A stretch of 64,000 bases of DNA from Candidatus Roizmanbacteria bacterium (GCA_024654535.1 JANLHL010000007.1:2395-66394), one strand, 5' to 3'. Shown: positions 94-63,094, counted from the first letter of the stretch. The notes: a model not told the origin generated them from the sequence alone. Program-made: numbers and translations.

Positions 94-160
94 ATTCTAC
101 AATCGTTATTACGATTGTAGATTCCCTTGCATTTTTTTTACATGTCTTTACAATGTATGC

Positions 161-2133: not shown

Positions 2134-2159
2134 CTTTATTTAGTCAAAACTAAATAAAG
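2134..2159 (+). terminator. Perfect 10-bp hairpin after gene 161-2131
   Basis: CTTTATTTAG-TCAAAA-CTAAATAAAG starts 3 nt after the stop and abuts the repeat box at 2160. Confidence 0.5.
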
Positions 2160-3413: not shown

Positions 3414-3472
3414 AATACCCTATGTAAAATAAGACGTATAGGACTTTAAGACGCATACAAGCTAAAAAAAGC

Positions 3473-6139: not shown

Positions 6140-7465
6140 CTATCCCTGTTTCAGTTGTGCTAGAAACGTTTTGTTGTCTTTGGTTTTTCGCATTTTATCA
6201 ATCAAAGAGACCAATCGTTCATCCTCGCCCAAGAGAAGCAACATATGTCGAAGGGTTGCAATTTTTGAGAAATCGTCTTTACTCAACAATAATTCGTCAT
6301 GTCGCGTACCTGATTTCTCTACGTTTATAGCTGGATATATGCGTCGCTCCGCCATACGTCTATCTAAGTGCAACTCCATATTGCCAGTTCCCTTAAATTC
6401 TTCATAAATAAGGTCATCCATACGTGAACCTGTATCAATAAGCGCAGTGCCGATAATAGTAAGACTACCACCGCCCTCACAATTGCGCGCTGCTCCTAAA
6501 AAGCGTTTGGCAGGATATAGCGCTGCAGGATCAAATCCACCTGAGAGTGTTTTTCCCGAAGGTCCAACACTGAGGTTGTATGCCCGAGCTAACCGTGTAA
6601 TTGAATCGAGAATGATAACAACGTCTCGACCCATCTCAACTAATCGTTTCGCCCGCTCAAGCCCCAGTTCTGCTACCTTCGTTTGGTGCTCAGGCGATTC
6701 GTCAAAATTAGACGCAACAACTTCTCCTTGAATTGAACGACTCATATCGGTTACTTCTTCAGGCCGTTCACCAATAAGCGCTGCAATAATATGTACATCT
6801 GGGAAATTCTTCGTAATACCGGCTGCTATTTCTTTTAGCACCGTTGTCTTCCCAGCTTTTGGTGGAGAAACGACTAACCCACGTTGACCAAAACCAATTG
6901 GAGAGAATAAATCTATGATTCTATTTGATAATGCAGTCGAATCATACTCAAGCACAACGTGCTTCTCGGGATAGATAGATGTTAAGTCGTCAAAATTACC
7001 CCGTTCTACAAATCCAGCCTTAGGTTCTGTCCCATTGATTAACGTAATTTTCAAAAGCCCATGGTACCGTTCATTTTGTTTCGGAGGACGAGCAAGTCCG
7101 TTGACAAGATCTCCTTGGCGCAAACGAAATTTTCTAATCTGTGACATAGACACATATACATCATCATTTGATGGAGCAAATGTTGGTCTTAAAAATCCGT
7201 AACTCGTGTTCACAATGTCTAGGAATCCATGCACTTCAAATGACTGTTTTAAGTCGTCCTGAATACGTTGTTCAAACACCGGAGGTTGAGCAGTTGAATC
7301 GGAAACCATATGTACTGCCGCAGGTTCTGGGGCAGGCTCTGGGGCAGGCTCAGGTTCAGAAACAGCCGCGGAAACTGGCTTTTCCTGTTGAGGGGTTGTA
7401 ATGAATGTACTGACATCCAGAGCTTCATCTGAAGAATCTGGTATTTTTTTTACGCGTGTCACCAT
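6140..7465 (-). CDS. rho: Transcription termination factor Rho with P/E/A-rich N-terminal extension
   Basis: Walker A SPPKAGKTT and the Rho-specific RNA-binding and ATPase core (GFGFLRP-like YGFLRP, IIGTALIDTGSRMD). N-terminal EPEPAPEPAPEPAA is encoded by 12-nt tandem DNA repeats near 7320-7365. Confidence 0.95.
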   Translation of the reverse strand: MVTRVKKIPDSSDEALDVSTFITTPQQEKPVSAAVSEPEPAPEPAPEPAAVHMVSDSTAQPPVFEQRIQDDLKQSFEVHGFLDIVNTSYGFLRPTFAPSNDDVYVSMSQIRKFRLRQGDLVNGLARPPKQNERYHGLLKITLINGTEPKAGFVERGNFDDLTSIYPEKHVVLEYDSTALSNRIIDLFSPIGFGQRGLVVSPPKAGKTTVLKEIAAGITKNFPDVHIIAALIGERPEEVTDMSRSIQGEVVASNFDESPEHQTKVAELGLERAKRLVEMGRDVVIILDSITRLARAYNLSVGPSGKTLSGGFDPAALYPAKRFLGAARNCEGGGSLTIIGTALIDTGSRMDDLIYEEFKGTGNMELHLDRRMAERRIYPAINVEKSGTRHDELLLSKDDFSKIATLRHMLLLLGEDERLVSLIDKMRKTKDNKTFLAQLKQG

Positions 7466-7546
7466 GGAGAAAATAATAATTTATAAAAAACGAAATTAAC
7501 CTCGATATACAAAAAGGAAATAATTTACTTTTGAGTTCAAAATACC

Positions 7547-7742
7547 GCTACTATAAAGGTGTTTCACATTGATTTTTTCCCATTCTTGGGAAATGGGAAG
7601 GACTGAACTTCCGCGTTCATGCAGACTGAACGTGGCGAATCTCAGTACCTCATAGTTCCATTCTTCCTAAGAGAGAGTGGAACGTACCCTTTATTTTGTT
7701 GTATAGGAAAATATTTCAATGATCGTCACCCTTTATAGTAGC
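7547..7742 (-). ncRNA. Candidate structured RNA or rho leader domain (6S-like rod or attenuator; class unknown)
   Basis: 15-bp closing helix GCTACTATAAAGG(G)TG formed by 7547-7561 and 7727-7742. It encloses three strong hairpins (7577-7599, 7611-7635, 7655-7683). Minus-strand promoter TTGACA (7771-7776), 16 nt, TAAACT (7749-7754) predicts a 5' end at about 7742. The domain ends 81 nt before the rho ATG. Confidence 0.4.
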
Positions 7743-7807
7743 AAGTATAGTTTAGCAAAATTCTCATGCATGTCAACCACCATTGTCGTATATATATACG
7801 ACAATGG

Positions 7808-8010
7808 AATATCCAAGTTCAAATATCCAATGACAAACCCGCCTGCCCGCTTCGAAGCGAGGCGAGCCGGCGAGGCAGGTGAATGCCAAAACTCAAGTTT
7901 TAAAGTTAGACAGTAAGAATTTGACATAGGGATTTGGAGCTTCACTTGTCATTGGGACTTTGTCATTCGACATTACTTGGTTATGGATATTTGATATTGG
8001 ATATTGGAGT
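7808..8010. repeat. Composite intergenic repeat with embedded 41-nt GC-rich module
   Basis: Starts AATATCCAAGTTCAAATATCCAATG, carries the GC module at 7839-7879, and ends GATATTTGATATTGGATATTGG. Confidence 0.9.
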
Positions 8011-8031
8011 TTCCTGCTATATACTTCCCCT

Positions 8032-13493: not shown

Positions 13494-13513
13494 ACGTTCA
13501 TAAAACTGAACGT
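13494..13513 (+). terminator. Hairpin after tRNA-Ala (ACGTTCA-TAAAAC-TGAACGT)
   Basis: 7-bp perfect stem starting 3 nt after the CCA end. No clear U-tract. Confidence 0.4.
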
Positions 13514-13608: not shown

Positions 13609-13632
13609 GTACGATTTTCTTTAAAAAATCGT

Positions 13633-16613: not shown

Positions 16614-18839
16614 TTACTTCTTCTTATAATACATTTCTAAACAGCGGCGAATTATTTTTTCCTTATTATTATTGACCACCGAAGGTAAACCCAGTGTTGT
16701 CGCCAAAAAAGGGTCGCTCGTCAAACCGCCGATAGACATCTTCATGAGCGTTTGAAATTTACCCAATGCAACAAGATCGTCTGCGGTGAATTTGCCACCA
16801 AATTCTTTTTCGAACAACCCAGCGTCGCGCGCGCCAACAACAAAAGTCACCAATGTTCCCACATTTCCAAAGATAGCCTTTTGAATATCTTCGTCGACCT
16901 GCCCAACGTATTGATTTGCAAGTGTAAGGTTCAATTTATATTTGCGAGCTTCAGATAAAATCTTGATAAATGAATTCGTCGCAAAATTTTGAAACTCGTC
17001 GACATACAAATAAAAGTCACGCCTCTCTTCCTCGGGTATAAACACCCTTCGCATAGCGGTGAGCTGGATTTTGGTGATAAACATGGCGCCTAAAAGTGCG
17101 GTGGTATCTTCCCCAAGCTTACCTTGTGATAAATTTAAAATCAAAATCTTCCCTTTATTCATCACCTCATCAAGCGAAAAGGTAGATCGTTTGCTATCGA
17201 CTATGCTCCTTATTCGTTGGGAAGACAAAAATTGACCAACTTTGTTTAAAATGGGCGAAATTGCCTCTGTTCGTAAACGATCAGACATTTTTTCAAATTC
17301 GTCAATCCAAAACTGCGATAAAATAGTGTCTTTCTTCGCTAAATCGGCAACTACTTTACTTCGATACTGCTTATTAGTGAGCATACGGGGAATGTCGGCA
17401 AATGTTGCATCTTCATATAAGAGAAGAGAAAGAATTGTATTTCTGAGCATATACTCGAGTCGTGGACCCCATGAATTTTGATACAACTTGTAAAAAACTG
17501 AAACAATTCCCGATGCCACAACGTCGGTATGCTGGATTCCTTCTTGATCAAATAAATTGAGCGAAAATGAACGATCCGCTGCTAGTGTCGGGTCCAGATA
17601 TATCACGTCGTTTACCCGCCTCTTGGGTATGAAGTTCAATATCATTTCGGAAAGATCTCCGTGCGGATCTACCACCGCTACTCCATGTCCATTGCGTATA
17701 TCATTGATCGCCATATTGGCAATAAGTGTGGACTTTCCTGCTCCTGTTTTTCCAATAACGTACATATGTTTTCGTCTATCTTCGTGGGCTATCCCAAATA
17801 TTTCCTCTCGATTGCGCCATTCTGTTCGAGCAAAAAAGTTGATATCAAACTTCGGTTGTTCTTTCTCAGAGATGTCTTCATTATCCGCCGGTGTGTCTGA
17901 TCGTTGCGATGTATTTCCCTCATCTGTTGCGACAGGTAAATTATCAGGGGCTTCTGAAATGTAGGTCTTCCCCCAATAAATGCTTTTTATTTTTTCAAAA
18001 CTTTTATCTGGTAAGTGCCACAGAGAAGAGAGCTCTTCCAGATTCAATAGCAACGTTTTTTGAAACAAGAAAAATTCGCGCCGGGCAATTTTTTGAAAAA
18101 GCGGTTTTTTCATAAGACCCTTGACGTGTTTATAGACAAAACTATTGCCTTCTGACAGTGTATAGATACCAAAAATACCAGCAAATTCTGCCAGTTTCGA
18201 CAGTGCTGTATCTCGGCTTTTGCCTGCGACAATGATGCGTATCTGCGCCTCTAAAAGAGGAGTCGCCAGCTTTTGAGTTATGAGCGCATTATATGGATTA
18301 CTCTCTTCTTTTCCCTCAGTACCTATCACCTTCATGCGCGAACGTATTTTTCTCTGCTTACCACTTTGATCATGCGGTGTTTTGATAACTATCTGAAAAA
18401 AGGCTTGCTCAGTAGGGCCAAGTTTCGAGAAAAAAGCCAAAATAGATGATAGTGGAGAGATGGACTGAAACTGTGTATATGTTTTTATCGGATATTCGTG
18501 TGTATAACTTAGATTTAAAACACCAACTGCAACAACGTTCCCTTTTACGACAGATAACAGCGGGTCTGCGTGTTCTTCTGTTATGAGAGTTTTTGGATAC
18601 TGAGAAAGAACTTGACTCGTAAAATAGCCGCTTAGACCGGTCGGGGTATGTATGTAAAAATGAGTCTTTTGCACAATTGAGGCGATTTCCAATGAGACAA
18701 CTTTGGGATCTTTAAGTAGCATATAGTCGACAAGTTTTCTTTTACCAATAGAAAGGAAGGATGAAAGTAACCCCACCTGCGCCGATACCGGTGTCTCCTC
18801 TATTTTAGCCGGCCGAAGTAACATATATGTATCTGGCAT
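16614..18839 (-). CDS. VirD4/TraD-type coupling-protein-like P-loop ATPase (FtsK/HerA superfamily), paralog 1
   Basis: Walker A VIGKTGAGKST, Walker B FYLYVDEFQNFAT, and ARKYKLNLTLANQYVGQ. Paralog of 39120-41474. TATAAT (18846-18851) lies 6 nt upstream of the ATG. Confidence 0.7.
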   Translation of the reverse strand: MPDTYMLLRPAKIEETPVSAQVGLLSSFLSIGKRKLVDYMLLKDPKVVSLEIASIVQKTHFYIHTPTGLSGYFTSQVLSQYPKTLITEEHADPLLSVVKGNVVAVGVLNLSYTHEYPIKTYTQFQSISPLSSILAFFSKLGPTEQAFFQIVIKTPHDQSGKQRKIRSRMKVIGTEGKEESNPYNALITQKLATPLLEAQIRIIVAGKSRDTALSKLAEFAGIFGIYTLSEGNSFVYKHVKGLMKKPLFQKIARREFFLFQKTLLLNLEELSSLWHLPDKSFEKIKSIYWGKTYISEAPDNLPVATDEGNTSQRSDTPADNEDISEKEQPKFDINFFARTEWRNREEIFGIAHEDRRKHMYVIGKTGAGKSTLIANMAINDIRNGHGVAVVDPHGDLSEMILNFIPKRRVNDVIYLDPTLAADRSFSLNLFDQEGIQHTDVVASGIVSVFYKLYQNSWGPRLEYMLRNTILSLLLYEDATFADIPRMLTNKQYRSKVVADLAKKDTILSQFWIDEFEKMSDRLRTEAISPILNKVGQFLSSQRIRSIVDSKRSTFSLDEVMNKGKILILNLSQGKLGEDTTALLGAMFITKIQLTAMRRVFIPEEERRDFYLYVDEFQNFATNSFIKILSEARKYKLNLTLANQYVGQVDEDIQKAIFGNVGTLVTFVVGARDAGLFEKEFGGKFTADDLVALGKFQTLMKMSIGGLTSDPFLATTLGLPSVVNNNKEKIIRRCLEMYYKKK

Positions 18840-20214: not shown

Positions 20215-20241
20215 ACCCCTTGCTCTTTTCTAGAGGTGAAA

Positions 20242-26638: not shown

Positions 26639-26748
26639 AGTTTGGCCACCTCCCGGGGCCATTGAAAAACAGAAAGCTGATCGCTTTGCCGCTCGACATT
26701 TGCCTAAACTTCTTGGGCATGCCGAACGGACAAAAGGGGGAAGAATAG

Positions 26749-26869
26749 AATATCCAATACCCAATAACCAATATCCAATAAATGTCAAAGTTCCAATTTC
26801 CAATTCTGACATTTGTCATTTGGATTTGGATATTCTTTGGATATTTGATATTTGAAATTGGATATTTCC
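26749..26869. repeat. Composite intergenic repeat, full copy, between the candidate RNA and the GC-rich lipoprotein gene
   Basis: AATATCCAATACCCAATAACCAATATCCAATAAATGTCAAAGTTCC...GACATTTGTCATTTGGATTTGGATATTC..GGATATTTCC. Confidence 0.9.
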
Positions 26870-26924
26870 TAGATTCCTTCCTCTTTTGTCCGAACCTCTC
26901 GAGATTCAAATAAATCAAGATTTC

Positions 26925-27300: not shown

Positions 27301-27464
27301 AAACTCTTTAATAAAAGGGATACTACGGATGTTCATTATTTGTTTCATCGTCATAGAGATAATTCTACCAAATTTACTATAGGATGTCAATAGAGGTACT
27401 ATACAACAAGCTAGAATACGTAATATAGGATACCATATGGTACTACCGCATGATATACTATTGC

Positions 27465-28184
27465 ATGTCGCTTTTGGAAAGAGTAGCTGAAAAACTCACA
27501 GGGAATAGCTTCCCCACCTTTGGAACATTGGCTGACGTGGATTATTCTGACCCTAGCCAATTTATACCGAAAACAAAAAGTGAAGACCATGCCCTACCGC
27601 AATACGTAGGTGCACCCGCACACCCAGAAACAGATACACAACCATCTATATATGGAAAACTACAGGCAATTCGTATGCAGCTTGATACACTCAATCTGGG
27701 AGAATTGCCCGTAACCCTACAAAACCAAAAAGGAGAAAACGTTGAACTCATATGCGCACACGAAACATATGGAGAAGGCCAGATACATACATTGGCTTTT
27801 CATTCTCAAGGTGTACCTATCACTACTTTTGTATGTTCTCAATCTTTAGATGGTAGGTGTAAAGTTACGGTACGATATGACCACAACACTACCGGAATAT
27901 TTGAACCTATGGAAATACACTCGGGTGCATTTGCTCGACTATCTCTCCCCTCCGACAAAGAGCAACGATTTATGACGTATGCTTTTTCCACAGATCAAAG
28001 AGGCATCATCATACATACCCCACAAGCTTTATCATATACCGTATTTACACCAGAATGGGGAAAGGTCACCAATACTTGCCTACTTTCTATTTCATCTAAT
28101 GGAAATGCTGGGCAATTACCATTTGCCAGATTTGTAACGAACCAACTCCAGTCGGCTGTAGCAGCAATGCCCACGTCTGTATAA
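27465..28184 (+). CDS. Tandem paralog 1 of unknown-function family (no signal peptide, no TM helix)
   Basis: The ATG is 5 nt after TGaTATACT (27452-27459). Shares the core ELICAHETYGEGQIHTLAFHSQGVPITTF..V.VRYDHNTTG and the tail AVAAMPTSV with paralogs 2 and 3. Confidence 0.6.
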   Translation: MSLLERVAEKLTGNSFPTFGTLADVDYSDPSQFIPKTKSEDHALPQYVGAPAHPETDTQPSIYGKLQAIRMQLDTLNLGELPVTLQNQKGENVELICAHETYGEGQIHTLAFHSQGVPITTFVCSQSLDGRCKVTVRYDHNTTGIFEPMEIHSGAFARLSLPSDKEQRFMTYAFSTDQRGIIIHTPQALSYTVFTPEWGKVTNTCLLSISSNGNAGQLPFARFVTNQLQSAVAAMPTSV

Positions 28185-28265
28185 ATAAAGGGGGCTACAA
28201 AGCTTGAAGCACAGTAATGCTATACGCATTATCCATTTTAGCGCCGCTGAATGGTATACTATGCC

Positions 28266-29105
28266 ATGATAGTGGATATATTCAGAAATATAAAAAATAA
28301 GATAAAACCTCTTTCATCTGGAGGCATGGTAGATACAGACCTCGATGCTACATATACAGGAGTAACCATGCCAGAACAAACTGCATTACCAATAGCAAAC
28401 AGATTTACTGAACTTGACGATACTGCAGGTGACGCGGTGGTTCAAAGCTTTGCTTCCGTCACTGTGACTGATTTGGAAATACAAGCCCCAGATCCCAGTA
28501 CTGTACCACTTATACCTGCGACTATTGATTTCGATAGAGGAAAACCAGATATATACATTCACATGCGTAGATGCTTACAAGACTTATGGACACGACTTGG
28601 CAAGCTTGATGCAGAAGAACCAAAAATCGTACATTTACGGAATCAAGAAGGTCAACTAGTAGAGCTGACGTGTTCTCATGGGATTGGGGGAGACGGACAG
28701 ATACATAGGTTAACTTTTTACCACCAAGGTGTGCCTATCACTGCTTTTCACGTAACCCAATTTCAAAATGGTGGAATGGAAGTTGCTGCACGGTATAACC
28801 ATAATACAGCCGGAGTTCTTCTACCAATGCATAAACATGAAAAAACGTTCAAACAGTTGCCTCCATTATCTAATAATGGTGAACGATTTACAAGCTATTT
28901 ATTTACACTAAATCCCGATGGAAGCGCACCTCCCAAACCACAAGTATCGCATAATTATGAAGATAAAAGCCCAGGTGGAAATGGAGATTTTAGAAGTGTT
29001 CCGCTCGACATACCTACCGCCTATCCCGGAAATTATCTACCGTTTATGGGACACATCGTGCACCAAATAGTAGCGGCTGTAGCAGCAATACCCACGTCTG
29101 CATAA
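28266..29105 (+). CDS. Tandem paralog 2 of unknown-function family
   Basis: The ATG is 5 nt after TGgTATACT (28252-28260). Core ELTCSHGIGGDGQIHRLTFYHQGVPITAF, tail AAVAAIPTSA. Confidence 0.6.
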   Translation: MIVDIFRNIKNKIKPLSSGGMVDTDLDATYTGVTMPEQTALPIANRFTELDDTAGDAVVQSFASVTVTDLEIQAPDPSTVPLIPATIDFDRGKPDIYIHMRRCLQDLWTRLGKLDAEEPKIVHLRNQEGQLVELTCSHGIGGDGQIHRLTFYHQGVPITAFHVTQFQNGGMEVAARYNHNTAGVLLPMHKHEKTFKQLPPLSNNGERFTSYLFTLNPDGSAPPKPQVSHNYEDKSPGGNGDFRSVPLDIPTAYPGNYLPFMGHIVHQIVAAVAAIPTSA

Positions 29106-29186
29106 AATATCGCTCACTCACCTCGTTTTGTATAAGAAGAGTACACAATCTATAGCTTCCGGCGCCGCTGAATGGTATACTACCGC

Positions 29187-29876
29187 ATGGCATTCGTTGA
29201 TAGACTTTTCAGGAACATAACGGGCTATAGCTTACCTTCTGTTGGAGCAGTAGATATGGCATCTTATGCTGACCCTGCATCATTTCCAAAACCTCGCAAC
29301 GAAGGAGAAAGAGATCCTTTCGCATATTTGCACGAAGCATTCCAGGCGCTCTATATGGAAATTGGTGGACTGAAGCATCAAAAACCGATAACAATTACAC
29401 TACCGGATGTGACTGGTGAAACACACCCAATCACATGTACTCCAGAAATTTGGGATGAACAATTTTCTAAATGTGGCTTGTATTTTGCAAACAATAATAC
29501 TGGATTAGGCCGTATTATTATTACTACTCCTAATCTTGGAAAACTCCAGGTTACCGCGATTTATTTCAATACACATGCTTCTTCAATACTTCCACCACAA
29601 CAACAACATGTGGAAGTTATCGACCAACTTCCACTTCTTGCGCGAGGAGAAAGACATACGCTTATGTATACATTTGGCTTATCTACAAACGGATTAACAA
29701 AAAAACCACAAGCAACAACAAGTACTCAAAATGGATCACTAACTTCTTGTGACCCATCTCAAATGTGCATGTCACTCGGGATTGGCGAAGAAGATACTGC
29801 GAGCTATCAAGAGCTTGTAGAACATGTACTGGGTCAAGCACAGTCAGCAATGACAGCTATTTCTACGTCTGCATAA
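29187..29876 (+). CDS. Tandem paralog 3 of unknown-function family
   Basis: The ATG is 5 nt after TGgTATACT (29173-29181). N-terminus MAFVDRLFRNITGYSLPSVG resembles paralog 1. Tail SAMTAISTSA. Confidence 0.6.
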   Translation: MAFVDRLFRNITGYSLPSVGAVDMASYADPASFPKPRNEGERDPFAYLHEAFQALYMEIGGLKHQKPITITLPDVTGETHPITCTPEIWDEQFSKCGLYFANNNTGLGRIIITTPNLGKLQVTAIYFNTHASSILPPQQQHVEVIDQLPLLARGERHTLMYTFGLSTNGLTKKPQATTSTQNGSLTSCDPSQMCMSLGIGEEDTASYQELVEHVLGQAQSAMTAISTSA

Positions 29877-29957
29877 AATACCGCTCGCTTATTCCACTTT
29901 GTATAAAACTACAACACAATCTATAGCTTTTGGCGCCGCTTAATGATATACTACTGT

Positions 29958-30626
29958 ATGTTGAAAGACTTTTATATAGGAAAAATGTTTAATCGATTTA
30001 GACAAACTCCGCACGAAAAAGATTATTCTGGAGCTCGCCATACGTTGCACCAACAGGAGTTACCGTTATCATCTGGAAGCCAAGAAAATGTTAGACAGAT
30101 GATTGCGAGTCTGCCACAGGAAAATGTCGATTTTAATATTCAATTAGGTGGTGCAACAGGAGGTGCATGTCGCCATATAGTACATGTAAATGAAGTTGGT
30201 AAAGTAAAACAGATCTATGCTGTCTTTCCACCCGAGACACGTAGACCTACTCAACATAGTCAAGTAGCACGATTTGAAGTTGATTCCTCGGGAAATGGAG
30301 CAGAATATACAGTGACGGCACGGTACTCTTCTGCTGGGTGGCTTGCACATATGAGCCTATCTGATAATAATTTTGCTGCGCCTAATTCGGTACAAGTGGA
30401 CCCTCGATGCTCACTTCGAATACAAATGGATTTTTCTGAACCTGATGCACTCAAACTATTTCGTTTACATGCTTCACGAAGCCCAGTGCAAGACGAGCCG
30501 GAACAAGATGTCGATAAGCATGTACCGCTCATTCTACAACTACATGAAAGAATAATTGATCATATCACAGGACAGATAAGCGCACTAAACGCAGCCGCTG
30601 CACAACAACTTAAAACCCAGAGTTGA
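29958..30626 (+). CDS. Tandem paralog 4 (most divergent) of unknown-function family
   Basis: The ATG is 5 nt after TGaTATACT (29944-29952). The promoter and spacer are conserved with the upstream copies. The protein is weakly similar (V.ARY motif) and has a different tail. Confidence 0.5.
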   Translation: MLKDFYIGKMFNRFRQTPHEKDYSGARHTLHQQELPLSSGSQENVRQMIASLPQENVDFNIQLGGATGGACRHIVHVNEVGKVKQIYAVFPPETRRPTQHSQVARFEVDSSGNGAEYTVTARYSSAGWLAHMSLSDNNFAAPNSVQVDPRCSLRIQMDFSEPDALKLFRLHASRSPVQDEPEQDVDKHVPLILQLHERIIDHITGQISALNAAAAQQLKTQS

Positions 30627-32932: not shown

Positions 32933-33001
32933 AATTATGAGTATATCATACTATAGGTATAGTGTCAACTATGGGATATTCTGTGCACTGAGGTGTGCAC
33001 A

Positions 33002-33116
33002 GAATATCCAATATCCAAGTTCAAATAGCCAATAAAGCTCCAAATGACAAATGTCAGAATTGGACATTTGAACTTTGACATTTATTTGATATTTGGTATT
33101 GGATATTGGGATTTCT
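33002..33116. repeat. Composite intergenic repeat, full copy
   Basis: GAATATCCAATATCCAAGTTCAAATAGCCAA...CAAATGACAAATGTCAGAATTGGACATTTGAAC..GGTATTGGATATTGGGATTTC. Preceded by hairpin 32978-33005. Confidence 0.9.
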
Positions 33117-33142: not shown

Positions 33143-34474
33143 ATGAAAGTAGCCATACTCGGAGCAGGGTTTGCAGGTCTTACCGCTGCAAATGAACTTA
33201 TAAAGCAGGGGCACGAGGTGCATATATTTGAAAAATCTGAACAAAGTGGCGGTGCTGCGGGAGGATTTAAGCGACCAGGTTGGGATTGGTATGTGGACTA
33301 TGCATATCATCACTGGTTTACGAGCGACCATGCCATACTAAACCTTTGTAAAGAAATAGGATTTACAAAAAATATGGTGCTCCACCCTATCACAGCAACG
33401 GCATACCCGATAGATGCAGAAACAATAAATCAAGATACCAACACCGAGCAACTCTTTGAAGAATTTATCGGAACAAATGTACGAAGCTATAAACTCGATA
33501 GTCCAATAGATCTTCTGAAATTCGATAGAATATCGCCAGTAGACAGGCTGCGCACCGGGATTATGCTCGCGCTGCTAAAATTCGGCCCGGCTCTAGACAC
33601 ATACCACACGACTGCGGCATATACATTCTTGAAACAATGGATGGGCACACGCTCATGGGAGGTTTTATGGGAACCTCTCTTTAAACATAAATTTGATAAG
33701 TATCAGAAAGATATCAACACTATGTTTTTTTGGGCACGGACAAAACGGACAGCGGCGCTCGCCTACCCAGAGGGAGGCTACCAAGAGCTCGCGAATCACT
33801 TCTCTGGACTGCTCCAACAACACGGAGTGAAATTCCACTATAAAAGTGAGATTCTAGAGCTTCGCAAAAGCTCAGATACAAAACCTCGATTTATTCTTAA
33901 AGGTTCCGAACTTTTAAGGTTCGGAACCTCGATGACCTTTGATGCGGTGGTGAGTACGCTCCCCTCACCTGTGTTGTTGAAAATAGAAAAAGATGTTTTG
34001 CCAGAAATGTATCACAAACAGCTAACAAAAATACAATACCTCGGTGCGCAGACCGTTATTTATGAAACAAAGAAACCAGTTTTGCCCCATACATACTGGC
34101 TCAGTATAGCGTTACCACAATCACCATGGATGGTAGCGGTGCAGCACACTAATTTTGTACATCCACGCTATTTCAACAACCATCACATTCTCTACATGGC
34201 AACCTATACAAATAAACCGCTCAGTGAGAATATATGGAAAAAGGAATGTCCTGATATCCTTTGGCAACGCTCAGTGTTTATCCCCTACGCACAGCCACTG
34301 TACACAACTGAGTATTATAAATACATGCCTCAAACAACGACACCAGTACCCGGGCTTTATATTGCTAATATGGAACGCACATACCCGTATGATCGAGGCA
34401 CAAACCATGCGGTTCGTGTGGGAAAGCAGGCAGCAGAAGCAGTGGAAAAAAACAGTGCCGAGGAGAGGACTTGA
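33143..34474 (+). CDS. NAD(P)/FAD-dependent oxidoreductase (amine oxidase / phytoene desaturase / protoporphyrinogen oxidase-like fold)
   Basis: N-terminal dinucleotide motif MKVAILGAGFAGLTAANEL...E.....GG. The ATG at 33143 is 7 nt after TATAAT (33130-33135). The upstream ORF part is translated repeat. Confidence 0.75.
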   Translation: MKVAILGAGFAGLTAANELIKQGHEVHIFEKSEQSGGAAGGFKRPGWDWYVDYAYHHWFTSDHAILNLCKEIGFTKNMVLHPITATAYPIDAETINQDTNTEQLFEEFIGTNVRSYKLDSPIDLLKFDRISPVDRLRTGIMLALLKFGPALDTYHTTAAYTFLKQWMGTRSWEVLWEPLFKHKFDKYQKDINTMFFWARTKRTAALAYPEGGYQELANHFSGLLQQHGVKFHYKSEILELRKSSDTKPRFILKGSELLRFGTSMTFDAVVSTLPSPVLLKIEKDVLPEMYHKQLTKIQYLGAQTVIYETKKPVLPHTYWLSIALPQSPWMVAVQHTNFVHPRYFNNHHILYMATYTNKPLSENIWKKECPDILWQRSVFIPYAQPLYTTEYYKYMPQTTTPVPGLYIANMERTYPYDRGTNHAVRVGKQAAEAVEKNSAEERT

Positions 34475-35529: not shown

Positions 35530-35591
35530 CTCAATATAAATTTGACGTATGTGATAAATAGGACATATATGCCCATACAATTAATTATTGC

Positions 35592-38303: not shown

Positions 38304-38305
38304 GA

Positions 38306-38468
38306 AATGTCAAATAACAAATACCCAATTACCAACAAAATCCCAAATCCTAATATCCAATGTCAAAGGAATGACAAAGTCCAAATGACAAAGACAGAAT
38401 TTGATTTCAAAAATTTGACATTTGAACTTGGGATTTCACTTGACATTTGTCATTTGAGATTGGGATTT
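38306..38468. repeat. Composite intergenic repeat, full degenerate copy
   Basis: AATGTCAAATAACAAATACCCAA...TAATATCCAATGTCAAAGG..ATGACAAAGTCCAAATGACAAAG...TTTGACATTTGAACTTGGGATTTC..GACATTTGTCATTTGAGATTGGGATTT. Confidence 0.85.
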
Positions 38469-38502
38469 ACTATTTATAAGTATCCGAGTTTACAATACTG
38501 TT

Positions 38503-38931: not shown

Positions 38932-38954
38932 CCACTGTTGCATTGCACAACGGT

Positions 38955-39119
38955 GGAATATCCAAGTTCAAATATCCAATGTCAAAGCCGCCTGCCCGCT
39001 TCGACGCGAGGCGAGCCGGCGAGGCAGGTAAAGTGTCAATTCCCAATGATAAATGTCTGAATTGGAAATTGGAACTTTGACATTTGTTGGATATTGGTTA
39101 TTGGGTATTGGATATTTCC
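38955..39119. repeat. Composite intergenic repeat with second copy of the 41-nt GC-rich module
   Basis: GGAATATCCAAGTTCAAATATCCAATG, then the GC module at 38988-39028, then ...GGAACTTTGACATTTGTTGGATATTGGTTATTGGGTATTGGATATTTCC. Lies between two convergent genes. Confidence 0.9.
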
Positions 39120-41531: not shown

Positions 41532-41655
41532 GGGGAAATCCCAAGTTCAAATATCAAATATCAGAATTGGACATTTGAACTTTGACATTTGTTGGATATT
41601 TGTCATTGGATATTGGAATTTCAGTGGATATTGGGATTTGGATATTTGATATTCC
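41532..41655. repeat. Composite intergenic repeat, full copy
   Basis: GGGGAAATCCCAAGTTCAAATATCAAATATCAGAATTGGACATTTGAACTTTGACATTTGTTGGATATTTGTCATTGGATATTGG...GGATATTTGATATTCC. Confidence 0.9.
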
Positions 41656-41677
41656 ATGTACCCTACGTGGTACGTGG
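41654..41677 (-). terminator. Hairpin CCACGTACC-N6-GGTACATGG immediately after the stop of 41680-42534
   Basis: 9-bp stem with one G:U pair. It starts 2 nt after the TAG and is directly followed by the repeat element box AATATCAAATATCCAAAT. Confidence 0.45.
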
Positions 41678-41679
41678 CA

Positions 41680-42534
41680 CTACCAATTCTTTCCCGGGCC
41701 AAAGCTAACTCCTCCACCATTGAGTACTCCGTACAACATAGATGTTGGTGGGTATGTCCTGTTGGTAATGTAATATCTGAGCTGTCGTGTCACCGTATTT
41801 TTTAATTCTGGGATGGTTGCCGTTGAACTAATAATCTTTCCTTGTTCAGGTAAATTTTGGTCTCCCTCAAATGCAACAGAAACACCATCGCCATACAATA
41901 CCCAAGCCGAAATAAAGTCTGGCGTAGCAATATCACTAATCGTCGATAAATCAAACTGAAAGTCATACCACCCAGTTTTTCCGCAACTATTACCAACAGA
42001 CGCAGTTGCCGCATTTTCTATCTTGGGGCTTTGCGATAGGCTTGCGTTTGCCGCAAATGGGTACATAGCATACTGTCCACCGGTGGTGGTATAGTATACG
42101 TGGGCTAACATAGAAGCATCTGAACTGTCCCAACAGAGAGTAAGAGAAGTCCCAGCGTAAGTGGCAAGATCTACCATTATATTCTCCCCAGAGCTCGTCG
42201 TAACGTTCTGCGCAGCAAGATCAAAAATAGGACTACTACCAACAAGACTACTTGTGGTATTCACCGCTACACCGTCTAAAGAATATTGCTTGTTTGTATA
42301 GCTACCCTCTTTGAGCAACTTCAGCGCATCTTCCATCGCAGATTCTGCCGCATAATATGCTTTTTGGCTCTTTTCTTCTATCTTTGCTCTTCGCTGTTCA
42401 TACACCATTTGGGTAGCAACGGATGCACCAATAATAGCAAATATCGACATAAGCAGTGCCGCAATGATAACCACCTGCCCCCGCTGTTTCACATGTGAGT
42501 TGGATATTGGATATTGGATATTGGATATTTTCAT
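41680..42534 (-). CDS. Membrane-anchored secreted protein with TadE/pseudopilin-like N-terminal hydrophobic segment
   Basis: KQRGQVVIIAALLMSIFAIIGASVA resembles TadE/TadG-type N-termini. SD-like GGGAGA lies 9-10 nt upstream. The first 12 codons are encoded by TTGGATA repeats. Confidence 0.4.
   Translation of the reverse strand: MKISNIQYPISNSHVKQRGQVVIIAALLMSIFAIIGASVATQMVYEQRRAKIEEKSQKAYYAAESAMEDALKLLKEGSYTNKQYSLDGVAVNTTSSLVGSSPIFDLAAQNVTTSSGENIMVDLATYAGTSLTLCWDSSDASMLAHVYYTTTGGQYAMYPFAANASLSQSPKIENAATASVGNSCGKTGWYDFQFDLSTISDIATPDFISAWVLYGDGVSVAFEGDQNLPEQGKIISSTATIPELKNTVTRQLRYYITNRTYPPTSMLYGVLNGGGVSFGPGKNW
42500..42531. repeat. TTGGATA heptamer tract (4 copies) inside the first codons of gene 41680-42534
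   Basis: TTGGATATTGGATATTGGATATTGGATATTTT. Translated on the minus strand it gives MKISNIQYPISNS. Confidence 0.85.
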
Positions 42535-54241: not shown

Positions 54242-54261
54242 ATACAAATACATACATTTGT

Positions 54262-54376
54262 AATATCCAAGTTCAAATTTCCAATATCAAATAAAGTTCC
54301 AAATCCTAATGACAAATTCAAAAGTTGGACATTTGAATTTTGACATTCTTTGGAAATTGGGTATTGGTTATTTGTC
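54262..54376. repeat. Composite intergenic repeat, full copy
   Basis: AATATCCAAGTTCAAATTTCCAATATCAAATAAAGTTCCAAATCC..ATGACAAATTC..GGACATTTGAATTTTGACATTCTTTGGAAATTGGGTATTGGTTATTTGTC. Confidence 0.9.
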
Positions 54377-57050: not shown

Positions 57051-57086
57051 ACGAAAAAAGGAGCCTCCTTCTAAAGGAGGCTCCTT
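57051..57086 (-). terminator. Intrinsic terminator of groESL (also a hairpin for the convergent + gene)
   Basis: Perfect 13-bp stem AAGGAGCCTCCTT/AAGGAGGCTCCTT (57058-57070 and 57074-57086) with a 3-nt loop. On the minus strand it is followed by TTTTTTCG. Confidence 0.8.
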
Positions 57087-57106
57087 CAACGAATTTGCAA
57101 TTTCAA

Positions 57107-59091: not shown

Positions 59092-59144
59092 ACTTTTTTA
59101 TAGTTTAAATTAATAATTTATGTGTACTAACTTTTATCAAAAAG

Positions 59145-59179
59145 TAAGCACTTTGTCAAGAGGTGTGATAAAGTGCTAA
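59145..59179 (-). promoter_or_regulatory. CIRCE-like inverted repeat overlapping the groESL promoter
   Basis: On the minus strand: TTAGCACTT-N17-AAGTGCTTA. The spacer contains TTGACA. Canonical CIRCE is TTAGCACTC-N9-GAGTGCTAA, so the half-sites match but the spacing does not. Confidence 0.45.
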
Positions 59180-59200
59180 ACCATGCACTGCACAGTGCAT

Positions 59201-59358
59201 GGAATATCCAAGTTCAAATATCCAATATCCAAATAATAAGGTTTGACATTTGTCATTGGGATTTGGAACTTTATTTGACATTGGATATTGGATATTGGGT
59301 ATTGGGTATTGGATATTGGATATTGGGTATTGGGTATTGGATATTGGTTATTGGTGTT
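59201..59358. repeat. Composite intergenic repeat with expanded heptamer array
   Basis: GGAATATCCAAGTTCAAATATCCAATATCCAAAT...TTTGACATTTGTCATTGGGATTTGG..., then 11 consecutive TTGGNTA heptamers (59281-59357) organised as a duplicated 28-nt unit. Confidence 0.9.
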
Positions 59359-59378
59359 TCTTTTGCTATTATTATTCC

Positions 59379-60275: not shown

Positions 60276-60280
60276 AAGTA

Positions 60281-60408
60281 AATGACAAATATCCAATATC
60301 AAATATCAAATAAATGTCAAAGTTCAAATGTCCAATTGAAAAATTGTGAGGATTTTTGCCTTACTTTGTCATTGGGATTTGGATATTCCTTGGATATTGG
60401 TTATTGGC
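60281..60408. repeat. Composite intergenic repeat, full copy
   Basis: AATGACAAATATCCAATATCAAATATCAAATAAATGTCAAAGTTCAAATGTCCAATTG...CTTTGTCATTGGGATTTGGATATTCCTTGGATATTGGTTATTGG. Confidence 0.9.
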
Positions 60409-61069: not shown

Positions 61070-62868
61070 TATTTGGCAACAAAAAAAATAAAGGCAAAGA
61101 AGAGCCGGCGCAAAAAATAGACACAAGCGCACTAGCTGCTCAATCGGCAACACAGGCTGACGTAGTGACCGATAAAATAGCAAAACGCTTTTCATTGGGA
61201 ATGACTAGTATAGGGGATATCATAGCCCCTTCTTTTGTCGATGTCGATTTTTCAAGTATTACCATCGACAAACACCTCTATACCACCCTCTTTGTTGTGG
61301 GTTATCCACGCTATGTAGGACCAAACTGGATGAATGCTCTCATCACCTTTGACCATCCGCTATTCATATCTATGTTCGTCTACCCAACGCAGTCGAAGAT
61401 AGTACTTGATGATTTGAAACGGAAAATTGGAGAAATGGAGGCGACGGTGGAAAGCCAGGTAAGAGCGGGTAAAGTTGTCGACCCAACGGTACAGGTAACA
61501 CTCGATGATGCACTGTCGCTGCAGGCTGAAATTGCAAAAGGCGCAGAACGATTTTTTCAATTTGGTCTGTACATTACCATCCCTGCTGCAACCGCAGAAG
61601 AGTTGGAAGGCACAACAAAAGAGGTCATGAGCGTTTTGAGTTCGCTTCTCATAATTTCAAAACGCGGAGTGCTTGAGGCCGAAGAAGGCTTTAAATCAAC
61701 ACTACCGCTTTTCATGGATAGGCTTGCCGTATGGCGAAATATGGATACCTCTTCTTTGGCTATGACGTTTCCATTCATTACCTCTTCGCTGAGTGAAGAT
61801 AAAGGGATTCTCTACGGCGTAAACCAGAGCGACTCAAGCCTCGTTATATTCGACCGATTTTCTCTTGAGAACGCAAACCTTGTCGTCTTGGGTAAGAGCG
61901 GTGGCGGAAAAAGCTTCCTAGTAAAGCTCGACGTAATGAGGCAACTGATGATAGGTATTGACGTAATCATTGTCGACCCTGAAAACGAGTATCAGAATGT
62001 GTGCCGCAAGTTTGGCGGAGAATTTGTTCAGTTTTCACTTTCATCACCCATCCGTATAAACCCTTTTGACCTGCCCATAGGCCAAGAGGAAGAAGATGCT
62101 CTTGCAACAAATATTTTATCTCTCCATACCTTAATGACGGTCATAATGGGAGAATTGTCACCCGAGGAAGATGCACTCTTAGATAAAGCACTGGTCATGA
62201 CCTATCAACAAAAAGGGATAACGCAGGACCCTCTCACCCATCAAAACGAACCACCTCTTATGGAAGATTTATATAAAGTGCTACTTGGAATGGAACAAGA
62301 AGCTTCGCAAGCAATGGCGTTTCGGTTTGAAAAATTCATAAAAGGTTCTGCTTCGGGTATATTTAATTCACAATCTAATTTTGAATTCAAAAATAAGCTC
62401 ACTGTTTTTGGCATACGAGACTTGGAAGAAAACCTACGCCCGGTCGCTATGTATGTCGTCCTTGACTACATTTGGACAAAAGTTCGACATGAAAAGAAAC
62501 AGCGAGAACTCATCATAGATGAAGCCTGGTATCTGATAAAGCAAAAAGAAACGGCAGAGTACATATTCAACTTTGCAAAACGAGCACGCAAGTATGGCTT
62601 GGGCTTAACGACTATTACCCAAGATGTTGAAGACTTCTTAGGAACAAATGAGGGAAAAGCTATTATTACGAATTCAAGCATGCAGGTACTACTCAAACAA
62701 TCTCCTGTCGCCATAGATAAACTCGCCGATATTTTTTACCTAACCTCTGGAGAAAAGCACTTTTTGCTTTCAGGAGGGGTCGGAGAAGGTTTGCTCTTTG
62801 CTGGACCAGCTCACGTCGCTATGCAGGTTATTGCTGCTCCCCACGAAAAAGAAATAATCGAAGAGTAA
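61066..62868 (+). CDS. VirB4/TraE/PrgJ-like type IV secretion ATPase
   Basis: N-terminal IAPSFVDVDFSSITIDKHLYTTLFVVGYPRYVGPNWMNAL (CagE/TrbE/VirB-type). Walker A LGKSGGGKSF, Walker B LIIDEAWYL, and ARKYGLGLTTITQD. Confidence 0.8.
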   Translation: MIFGNKKNKGKEEPAQKIDTSALAAQSATQADVVTDKIAKRFSLGMTSIGDIIAPSFVDVDFSSITIDKHLYTTLFVVGYPRYVGPNWMNALITFDHPLFISMFVYPTQSKIVLDDLKRKIGEMEATVESQVRAGKVVDPTVQVTLDDALSLQAEIAKGAERFFQFGLYITIPAATAEELEGTTKEVMSVLSSLLIISKRGVLEAEEGFKSTLPLFMDRLAVWRNMDTSSLAMTFPFITSSLSEDKGILYGVNQSDSSLVIFDRFSLENANLVVLGKSGGGKSFLVKLDVMRQLMIGIDVIIVDPENEYQNVCRKFGGEFVQFSLSSPIRINPFDLPIGQEEEDALATNILSLHTLMTVIMGELSPEEDALLDKALVMTYQQKGITQDPLTHQNEPPLMEDLYKVLLGMEQEASQAMAFRFEKFIKGSASGIFNSQSNFEFKNKLTVFGIRDLEENLRPVAMYVVLDYIWTKVRHEKKQRELIIDEAWYLIKQKETAEYIFNFAKRARKYGLGLTTITQDVEDFLGTNEGKAIITNSSMQVLLKQSPVAIDKLADIFYLTSGEKHFLLSGGVGEGLLFAGPAHVAMQVIAAPHEKEIIEE

Positions 62869-62902
62869 CCATATATTTTTTAGTATTCTAAAAAATATAT
62901 GG
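62869..62902 (+). terminator. Perfect 15-bp hairpin after the VirB4-like gene
   Basis: CCATATATTTTTTAG-TATT-CTAAAAAATATATGG starts 1 nt after the stop. It is followed directly by the repeat box AATATCCAAGTTCAAATATCCAA rather than a U-tract. Confidence 0.5.
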
Positions 62903-62950
62903 AATATCCAAGTTCAAATATCCAAAGAATGTCAAAGTTCAAATGACAAA
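62901..62950. repeat. Composite intergenic repeat, left arm only
   Basis: GGAATATCCAAGTTCAAATATCCAAAGAATGTCAAAGTTCAAATGACAA. Confidence 0.85.
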
Positions 62951-63094
62951 AAAGGAAAAGATAAGCACGATGCTACGTTATTAGAAGATCTTTACATCTT
63001 GATTTGTAACTTTTTCTATTCACTAGCACTATAGAATAGTGCACATTTTTTTAGAATTGGTCGTTGTAATAACCTGCTCAACCCCGGGGGTTGA

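Follow-up and report, generated by a model that had tools for sequence, protein, structure and literature searches.

Hairpins and Repeat Modules in the Window

The analysed window comprises 64,000 nt of Candidatus Roizmanbacteria from the Candidate Phyla Radiation (CPR; Patescibacteria), and all coordinates are counted from its first letter. Near its end, the stop codon TAA of a VirB4-like gene is directly followed by the hairpin CCATATATTTTTTAG-tatt-CTAAAAAATATATGG and then by AATATCCAAGTTCAAATATCCAAAG, the three forming one uninterrupted layout (62869-62927 without the stop). The predicted RNA folding energy of this hairpin is -16.3 kcal/mol (z = -6.3 relative to shuffled sequences). Here, we study this hairpin, its counterparts within the window and in related contigs (numbered L001 onwards), and the intergenic repeat module that they adjoin.

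The module shows a fixed order, namely a stem-loop of free sequence, a box (T)GGAATATCCAAGTTCAAATATCCAAT, an array of degenerate heptads (AATATCC/AAGTTCA/AATGTCA) and the same array inverted, which ends in ..GGATATTTCC. The box is made up of the first three units of the degenerate array (AATATCC, AAGTTCA, AATGTCA, AATGACA), and the respective units of the inverse array are TGACATT, TGAACTT and GGATATT. Tandem Repeats Finder reports a period of 7 with up to 11.9 copies, and inverted arms are found in every full element. Element termini are GGAATATCC at the hairpin side and, on the other strand, GGAAATATCC or AGAAA.. at the far side. In total, the 64 kb hold about 10-12 modules of about 105-207 bp each, i.e., short, non-coding, intergenic units with terminal inverted repeats that occupy most of the window's intergenic gaps of more than 100 bp. 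At their end without hairpin, the modules usually border on a TATAAT-like -10 box and the start codon that follows; for this end, hybrid promoters are predicted at 33106 (TTGGGA-18-TATAAT) and 7998 (TGGATA-16-TATACT).

All of the seven array-abutting hairpins listed in an earlier note on this DNA are present (Table 1). One of them, given as 32978-33005, had been drawn too short, since its 3' arm takes in GAATATCC of the box such that the perfect stem spans 32974-33009; with one mismatch it even extends to 19 bp. The list lacked the clear hairpins 94-123 and 13611-13632 (both minus strand), the weak hairpin 54243-54262 and the hairpin 13494-13513. The first of these lies between the array 1-93 and the TPR-protein gene's promoter. 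The hairpin at 41654 adjoins a variant box, AATATCAAATATCC. Predicted RNA folding energies of the element hairpins range from -9.6 to -26.9 kcal/mol, with z-scores of -3.7 to -9.6 against shuffles for 8/9 folded hairpins and of -1.9 for 41654.

With regard to the whole window, we find 27 perfect hairpins with a stem of at least 8 bp and 11 with at least 10 bp. Six of the latter abut an array, and for the exact 21-nt box AATATCCAAGTTCAAATATCC a hairpin ending at position -1 is found in 5/5 window copies, such that chance is no explanation for the association. The earlier note had proposed to follow the adjacency genome-wide. Within the contigs of the clade it is frequent but not absolute: the window arrays 38304-38470, 60276-60400 (located inside the prgI-traC-virB4 operon), 26748-26870 and 42500-42529 are without hairpin, as is the respective end of three independent exact boxes in the clade (L004, L017, L059). 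The L004 element has its hairpin at the opposite end, next to a tRNA.

The same note had pointed out that 5/7 hairpins start with CCA and end with TGG. The count is correct; it is no fixed rule, given that orthologues show CTC..GAG, ATT..AAG and CTT..AAG. That is, CCA/TGG is a tendency rather than an invariant signal, and it results from the leading CC of the 5' arm pairing with the element's own terminal GG (within GGAATATCC). The stems are otherwise unrelated and start with CCA, CTT, ACG or AAT.

Compensatory Evolution at Orthologous Sites

Three contig collections were scanned. The metagenome-contig scan returned 97 loci, mostly chance matches within a gut-bacterial gene, and 12 real relatives (L004, L017, L019, L034, L042, L059, L060, L063, L079, L082, L085, L087). 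The viral-contig scan gave two matches, i.e., a chance match as well as a lone box that has a bulged hairpin. The genome-contig scan with the 23-nt box gave a single match, L001, which was binned as Flavobacteriales and differs in its tandem arrangement. Contigs syntenic with the window are L042, L063, L087, L034, L002, L101, L108 and L110. Their nucleotide identity to the window is 75-88%, and most are 45-58% identical at 4-fold degenerate sites (32% for L101).

Hairpin sites are kept in these relatives while the stem sequences differ. Pooled over seven orthologous sites, 59 base pairs are unchanged, 15 are changed on both sides and still Watson-Crick, and 5 are uncompensated. Respective per-site p-values lie between 3e-5 and 6e-3 in five sites. 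Stem bases are on average about 77% identical, compared to about 50% (45-58%) at 4-fold degenerate sites; the stems evolve more slowly and are therefore constrained for pairing and not merely drifting. At each site, pairing is preserved while the sequence drifts.

The clearest exchange is seen at 59181, where CCATGCACTG/CAGTGCATGG is replaced by CTCCACACCG/CGGTGTGGAG in L063 with 5/10 pairs changed and all of them compensated. The 62869 stem reads CCATACAATTTTTAG/CTAAAAATTGTATGG in L063 (two compensated pair changes) and CTTCGTACTTTCTT/AAGAAAGTACGAAG in L002; diverged hairpins are found at this position in both L101 and L002. Relative to L042, 94-123 shows two compensated changes and 2134 two compensated and one uncompensated change, and 41654 differs from L034 by three compensated changes. 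The orthologues of 38932 in L034 and L087 have the perfect form CCACTGTTGCA-t-TGCAACAGTGG. A different, imperfect hairpin is located at the 13611 site in L108 and L110, and the 13494 orthologue in L108 is CCGCGTTCA-tgaatt-TGAACGCGG, 0 nt past the CCA end of the tRNA. The promoter-side hairpins (94, 7780, 32974, 59181) are conserved equally to the rest, with 8 compensated versus 1 uncompensated change.

We also considered inversion of the hairpin by a flip-flop mechanism and set it aside, since the loop TATT of 62869, which is the reverse complement of AATA in L063, is the single such case. Apart from the modules, an 11-bp perfect palindrome is found at 33901-33929 inside an amine-oxidase gene. 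The L087 arms differ at six positions and are unpaired; the window palindrome may be the trace of a template-switch event.

Table 1. Positions of hairpins, repeat elements and reference features within the window
Feature	Position	Strand	Description
Hairpin behind the VirB4-like gene	62869..62902	+	CCATATATTTTTTAG-tatt-CTAAAAAATATATGG, 15 bp; 0 nt past VirB4-like stop TAA (62866-62868)
Box and left array	62903..62955	+	AATATCCAAGTTCAAATATCC, then left heptad array; truncated copy, right arm missing
Hairpin	2134..2159	+	11-bp stem, 4-nt loop; 2 nt past stop of TPR-protein gene; element 2160-2307
Hairpin	7780..7807	+	perfect 28-nt palindrome; 3 nt upstream of -35 box of rho promoter (rho on minus strand); element 7808-8014
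Hairpin	32974..33009	+	15-bp perfect stem; 5 nt from -35 box of divergent DUF11 gene; element 33010-33115
Hairpin	38932..38956	+	9 bp including one T.G pair; 0 nt past stop of 142-aa gene
Element of the 38932 hairpin	38957-39119		far end 0 nt from stop of convergent coupling-protein gene
Hairpin	41654..41677	-	9 bp with one C.A mismatch; 2 nt past stop of PilX-like gene; element 41534-41653
Hairpin	59181..59202	+	10 bp; adjoins inverted repeat and promoter of groES (minus strand); element 59203-59360
Additional hairpin	94..123	-	13 bp with one mismatch; 4 nt before array
Additional hairpin	13611..13632	-	8 bp; 0 nt past stop of ArgRS (arginyl-tRNA synthetase) gene; abuts ACTATCCAAGTTTAAATATCC
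Additional hairpin	13494..13513	+	2 nt past CCA end of tRNA-Ala; opposite end of the 13611 element
Additional weak hairpin	54243-54262		
Canonical intrinsic terminator of groEL (control)	57057..57087	-	GC-rich stem and T-run
rho	6140..7465	-	Rho_RNA_bind and ATP-synt_ab domains

The Hairpin as Part of the Module

The earlier note had weighed a module, in which hairpin and box always travel together, against an element that inserts beside stem-loops already in place. The comparison of related strains agrees with the former: empty outgroup sites at two orthologous loci carry neither hairpin nor array. In the groES-prgI gap, the outgroup L103 reads GAGTGCTAA, CAG and TTTTTTTGCTATCAT in direct succession, and both the 59181 hairpin and its array are missing in L002 as well. 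Likewise, neither follows the VirB4 stop in the outgroups L003, L102, L103 and L105. Hairpins of at least 8 bp that start 0-3 nt past a stop codon are found at 9/103 open reading frame (ORF) ends in the clade versus 0/46 in the outgroups. Core array words occur 0.4-2.5 times per kb in related contigs of about 40% GC and about 0 times in outgroup Roizmanbacteria contigs (45-53% GC), i.e., the repeat is confined to this Roizmanbacteria clade.

Copies at non-orthologous loci share the hairpin, too. In L019, CCACTGCTGCAAA-gtt-TTTGCAACAGTGG and the box lie directly behind a tRNA gene. Nearly the same hairpin and box are found behind a protein gene in L034 and L087; the copies have an 11-bp stem in common and unrelated left flanks, such that homology starts at the hairpin's first C and runs on into the array. 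Within the window, the copies 7780 and 38932 have 7/9 stem bases in common as well as the same nested palindrome. Given the same hairpin at non-orthologous loci and the lack of both parts at the outgroup sites, the hairpin belongs to the repeat and travels with the box. That is, the hairpin forms the outer end of an intergenic module that is lineage-specific and present in multiple copies, and it was inherited, and at least once copied, with its box. The module proposal of the earlier note is thus borne out by compensated changes at orthologous sites, by joint absence of hairpin and array in outgroups, and by the hairpins common to non-orthologous copies.

We found no second copy of the hairpin arms in the window and related loci besides the orthologues and the L019 paralogue. 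Given this absence in the searched DNA, we rejected that the arms are copied from elsewhere, be it spacer-like or from a local donor. Other 10-mer matches to the arms are few and all outside hairpins; the one inspected (L042) is coding sequence.

Direct repeats indicative of a target-site duplication were found neither around six complete elements nor in the filled/empty pair at 59181; the copies are old, and a duplication could have decayed. A Pfam scan of 30 window ORFs revealed no transposase, and the Rfam scan of the window at gathering thresholds reported two tRNAs only and nothing for the hairpins, the arrays or the conserved region upstream of rho. Cyanobacterial short tandemly repeated repetitive (STRR) sequences or MITEs (miniature transposable elements with inverted repeats), suspected from the heptamers and 41% GC, were rejected because the protein matches are to Candidatus Roizmanbacteria; for ArgRS, identity to a protein from a Roizmanbacteria metagenome-assembled genome at NCBI is 100%. 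TIGR-Tas (tandem interspaced guide RNA) arrays were rejected because these are tandem guide arrays rather than solitary hairpins. Finally, the reverse complement of the box resembles an outward sigma-70 promoter in four elements (TTGACA-17-GATATT); we mention this candidate in passing only, since the -35 part is unconserved and GATATT is a weak -10 box.

A GC-rich mini-palindrome (ACCCGCCTGCC..GGCAGGT) is nested within the arrays and follows in most copies directly after AATGWCARA (window 7837-7880 and 38986-39029; L034 342-358; L042 1830-1846; L063 9514-9530). Both window copies have the same 21-nt inner palindromic extension, which is missing in the orthologues and suggests concerted evolution. 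The short form is also found in one of the L063 arrays, where none exists in the window. Other spacers show a second family of short motifs, (A)ATAGGAC(G) (window 3414-3472 and 35530-35591; L002 1059-1110); in L002, it takes the place of the hairpin and array of the 59181 site. The L001 contig consists at 1-420 of about 118-nt tandem units, each with the hairpin TCCCGATAGCTATCGGGA, 17 nt and then AATATCCAATATCCAAGTYYAAATATCC. Either the repeat is related and belongs to another bin, or the contig was mis-binned.

A Putative Boundary Stem-Loop of Rho Type

The outer side of the hairpins falls into three classes. It lies 0-2 nt from stop codons (2131, 13633, 38931, 41680, 62868), 0-3 nt from tRNA 3' ends (the window's tRNA-Ala, L004, L019, L108) or 3-5 nt from a divergent -35 hexamer (rho, groES, the DUF11 gene and the TPR gene). 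The stems are followed by AATATCCAAG, i.e., the stable stem-loop of an intrinsic terminator is given without the U-rich tract. A consensus terminator scan picks out the groEL terminator, whose 9-bp core is unchanged in L063, but not 59181 or, on its sense strand, 62869. Since canonical U-tract terminators are found elsewhere in the window, the module hairpins form a separate class. This agrees with the earlier suggestion that they are "not simply terminators", as does the location of four of them at divergent promoters.

The 60 nt after nine hairpins are A-rich with a C/G ratio of 1.88; C exceeds G at 8/9 sites and equals G at the ninth. The window also encodes rho. For E. coli, the ends of Rho-dependent transcripts lie at stable stem-loops without U-tract, followed by sequence with more C than G (PMC6061677). 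Judging from sequence and position, the hairpin most likely marks a transcription-unit boundary and would be neither an ordinary terminator nor an insertion target. The missing U-tract, the C-over-G flank, the encoded Rho and the boundary positions together lead us to favour a structure-selected boundary stem-loop, i.e., a Rho-type 3'-end or insulator element. This more specific reading takes its function from the architecture of the module, and we hold it tentatively, at just under even confidence.

Under the boundary reading, selection would keep the stem-loop as a border between the module and its neighbour. For an adjoining gene or tRNA end, it would define and protect the 3' end of a Rho-terminated transcript, and the A/C-rich, G-poor heptad array beyond it could serve as the Rho loading region. 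With the arrays in inverted order, a polymerase that enters from either side would first make RNA with more C than G. The stem-loop might also stop or insulate transcripts that leave the module towards the neighbouring promoter. The hairpin-less end, abutting the -10 box of the next gene, would offer -35-like hexamers (TTGGAT, TTGACA). The module would hence resemble a terminator-plus-promoter cassette that can be tolerated with little harm in a compact genome. The retention of modules at unchanged sites over deep divergence, and this in a streamlined genome, speaks for such a role.

Several observations weigh against it. GC content in the stems is at the genome average, and G.U pairs are almost absent; a comparison aimed at G.U wobble as a mark of RNA-level selection had few imperfect pairs to draw on (1 T.G, 2 C.A, 1 T.C, 1 A.G). 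Several copies (7780, L004, L034) are palindromes up to 0-2 nt from the centre, which looks more like a DNA palindrome than an RNA hairpin. Since four hairpins (94, 7780, 32974, 59181) lie away from gene ends, termination of an upstream gene is not the whole story. A hairpin is missing from about half of the stop-abutting array ends (38304, 60276, 54377, the right end at 39119, the L004 left end and L059). Finally, the stretch with C over G is short (30-60 nt) and A-rich, and the G-rich complement that comes after it could sequester it.

A far-reaching extension would be that this CPR clade domesticated a self-copying cassette to organise its transcription-unit boundaries, combining a two-way Rho-type stop, a -35 donor, a possible heptad-binding protein and paralogues that drive inversions. 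We regard this combination as unlikely; its part on the paralogues is observed (see the L108 chimera below).

As a neighbouring observation, the approximately 310 nt upstream of rho (7466-7779, minus strand) are 88% identical to L042, which is above the neighbouring coding DNA. The region has no Rfam match and is probably a rho leader or attenuator.

Alternative Explanations

The hairpin could instead be a DNA-level feature, either as single-stranded DNA or cruciform for a module-copying machinery (HUH/Y1 enzymes as in repetitive extragenic palindromic (REP) sequences with their REP-associated tyrosine transposases (RAYTs), or IS200/IS605) or as a palindrome kept by intra-strand template switching. 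Perfect stems with almost no G.T pairs, neutral base composition, conservation independent of context, palindromes nested inside palindromes in the arrays and the coding palindrome 33901-33929, perfect in the window only, are in accordance with this. The equal conservation of promoter-side hairpins, the near-absent G.U pairs and some zero-length loops make a DNA-level role possible. However, selection for mobility cannot account for the maintained pairing of orthologous copies that were inherited vertically, and the slower evolution of stems compared to 4-fold degenerate sites (77% versus about 50% identity) indicates constraint rather than neutral conversion. Overall, we consider the DNA-level account improbable, if still the best of the alternatives.

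A candidate enzyme for it is found in the sister strain L108/L109, where a Y1-transposase/RAYT-like gene is flanked by hairpins that also start with CCACC and end with GGTGG. The gene (L108 4418-5119) lies in an insertion of about 0.8 kb (L108 4300-5160, also in L109) that is missing at the window's empty site 20215-20241. It encodes a 233-aa Y1/HUH protein with HFH and YIHLNP motifs, scoring 28.5 bits for Pfam Y1_Tnp and E = 2e-11 for the NCBIfam REP-associated tyrosine transposase, which is below the model cut-off. It is the single transposase-like gene seen in the clade, and among the window ORFs scanned no such gene was found. Its two flanking hairpins, CCACCAGGAGGT..ACCTCCGGGTGG and CCACCGGGAGGT..ACCTCCCGGTGG, are similar to each other and belong to a different family with conserved sequence (CCACCRGGAGGT-N11-ACCTCCYGGTGG); the ends of the gene's insertion are unlike module ends. 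Since this family is not that of the heptad modules, the gene has limited weight as enzyme candidate. Furthermore, no module hairpin arm recurs elsewhere in the related DNA searched.

A further copy of this family was observed in L087 (8699-8733, orthologous to window positions of about 33400-33440). Here, the same GC-rich palindrome as at the Y1 gene lies in frame in the amine-oxidase gene (..PPGGLRSTPPGG..); the codons of the window at this place are unrelated. It resembles the in-frame insertions of Rickettsia palindromic elements.

It is also conceivable, though rather doubtful, that the heptad arrays bind a protein, similar to the ribbon-helix-helix omega/ParB protein on its contiguous direct and inverted heptads, and that the hairpin is a structural stop against spread of this protein into the neighbour. 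The arrays are built from contiguous 7-bp units in direct and inverted runs of up to 12 copies, and the hairpin is conserved whatever the adjoining feature. We know of no case in which a cruciform acts as a barrier to the spread of a protein array (no literature search was aimed at it), which counts against this account. In addition, no candidate protein was identified, and the many array ends without hairpin are left unexplained. A precedent for the array itself is given by the parS heptads of pSM19035 (PMC9499535).

Two further accounts concern the origin of the hairpins. They might arise locally after arrival of the array, such that an inverted duplication or template switch turns the spacer into a palindrome that grows until it meets constrained flanks. 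The palindromes indeed span precisely what separates the array from the stop codon or -35 box, they vary in length (22-36 nt) with a unique sequence each, and they reach 2-12 nt into the box (CC..GG; GGATATTC..GAATATCC at 32974). This is hard to reconcile with the 11-bp stem that L019 and L034 have in common at non-orthologous sites with unrelated left flanks, or with the agreement of 7780 and 38932 in 7/9 stem bases. It also does not account for a hairpin at one element end only, and we judge such a local origin to have little chance of being correct.

Insertion of the element beside pre-existing terminator stem-loops, which the earlier note had raised with reference to class C group II introns and which is also known from REP-targeting insertion sequences, would fit hairpins directly after stops and tRNA ends, where host terminators are expected, but is very improbable given two testable outgroup empty sites without hairpin, the virtual absence of stop-abutting hairpins in outgroup contigs (0/46), hairpins without U-tracts unlike the host's canonical terminators, four hairpins in promoter regions, the same hairpin at unrelated loci, and an Rfam scan of the window that reveals neither introns nor, besides the two tRNAs, any RNA family.

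Comparison with Known Systems

The element is closest to MITE- or REP-like intergenic repeats and to Rho-type 3'-end stem-loops and agrees with the full definition of none of them. Rho-dependent 3' ends (PMC6061677) are alike in the stable stem-loop without U-tract just past genes, in the sequence with C over G behind it and in a rho gene in the genome. They differ in that the window hairpins are joined to a conserved 24-nt box and a heptad array and are also located upstream of promoters; Rho dependence is putative here.

MITEs and modular intergenic repeats such as Correia, RUP, BOX and SPRITE (PMC10969869) are likewise small (130-210 bp), AT-rich, multi-copy and intergenic, with terminal inverted repeats and long stem-loops. 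They also show presence/absence among strains, nested insertions and the ability to supply promoters or terminator-like parts. In contrast to them, the modules have a body of phased 7-nt units, one end with an extra stem-loop that differs in sequence in every copy, and neither a target-site duplication nor a parent insertion sequence was found. REP/REPIN-RAYT systems provide extragenic palindromes that often lie right past genes, and a RAYT-like Y1 gene exists in the sister strain. REPs, however, are conserved in sequence and carry a GTAG or CGTC tag, whereas module hairpins have only CC..GG in common, and the RAYT-like gene here is flanked by the different GC-rich hairpin family (CCACCRGGAGGT..ACCTCCYGGTGG).

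Integron attC sites also combine conserved structure and variable sequence with short conserved bases at the foot. Module stems differ from these in being perfect and lack R''/R' core sites (GTTRRRY), extrahelical bases and gene cassettes; no integrase was found among the 30 window ORFs scanned with Pfam. For class C group II introns and hairpin-targeting insertion sequences, a repeated element is located immediately 3' of a stem-loop past a gene, as observed here, but the module hairpin does not pre-exist at empty sites and the Rfam scan shows no intron RNA, nor is an intron-encoded protein present. The omega/ParB heptads of pSM19035 (PMC9499535) are alike in their contiguous 7-bp repeats, direct and inverted, in promoter regions. 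Their consensus is WATCACW versus AATATCC/AATGTCA here, their arrays have no flanking hairpin, and they are confined to a plasmid centromere, whereas the arrays studied here are genome-wide and their binding protein is putative.

Genome Rearrangement and Significance

Paralogous module copies drive chromosome inversions. In L108, the module between the 142-aa gene and spoU (17400-17660, compared with L110 10150-10420 and L034 255-520) is chimeric, with a left half (flank, hairpin and box) of the 38932 type and a right half of the 7780 type. Hence, recombination of module paralogues has led to a chromosome rearrangement that put the 142-aa gene beside spoU. Such repeats are thus substrates for genome rearrangement.

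CPR genomes are regarded as small, streamlined and repeat-poor, and to our knowledge almost nothing is known about transcription start and end in this group. Here, modules are kept at the same sites over a divergence that nearly saturates synonymous sites, with clear compensatory evolution of a terminal stem-loop. Persistence of sites together with compensatory evolution is a signature of function. The module represents a candidate terminator/insulator-plus-promoter cassette in an uncultured lineage. In case of a DNA-level role, the stem-loop would join attC among the rare hairpins within a repeat family that are specified by structure and free in sequence.

Neighbouring Features

The virB4-NUDIX gap of the window keeps the left half of the module only. 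In relatives (L002 4872-6344, L063), a 490-aa DUF4153 gene is located between virB4 and the NUDIX gene; it is missing from window positions 62955-63094. Within the gap, a canonical terminator with T-run is found at 63026-63052, 160 nt downstream of virB4, and the hairpin TCAACCCCgGGGGTTGA (63078-63094) abuts the NUDIX stop without any array. L002 has a different hairpin there.

At 59144-59180, next to the 59181 hairpin, a 10-nt inverted repeat (TAAGCACTTT..AAAGTGCTAA) brackets the -35 region of groES. Its arms resemble CIRCE (controlling inverted repeat of chaperone expression), with a spacer of 15 nt and not 9. Finally, four tandem genes of 227-284 codons without Pfam match (27450-30626) are separated by three 66-nt spacers (28185-28250, 29106-29171, 29877-29942), two of which are near-identical and all of which end in CGCCGCTGA or CGCCGCTTA.

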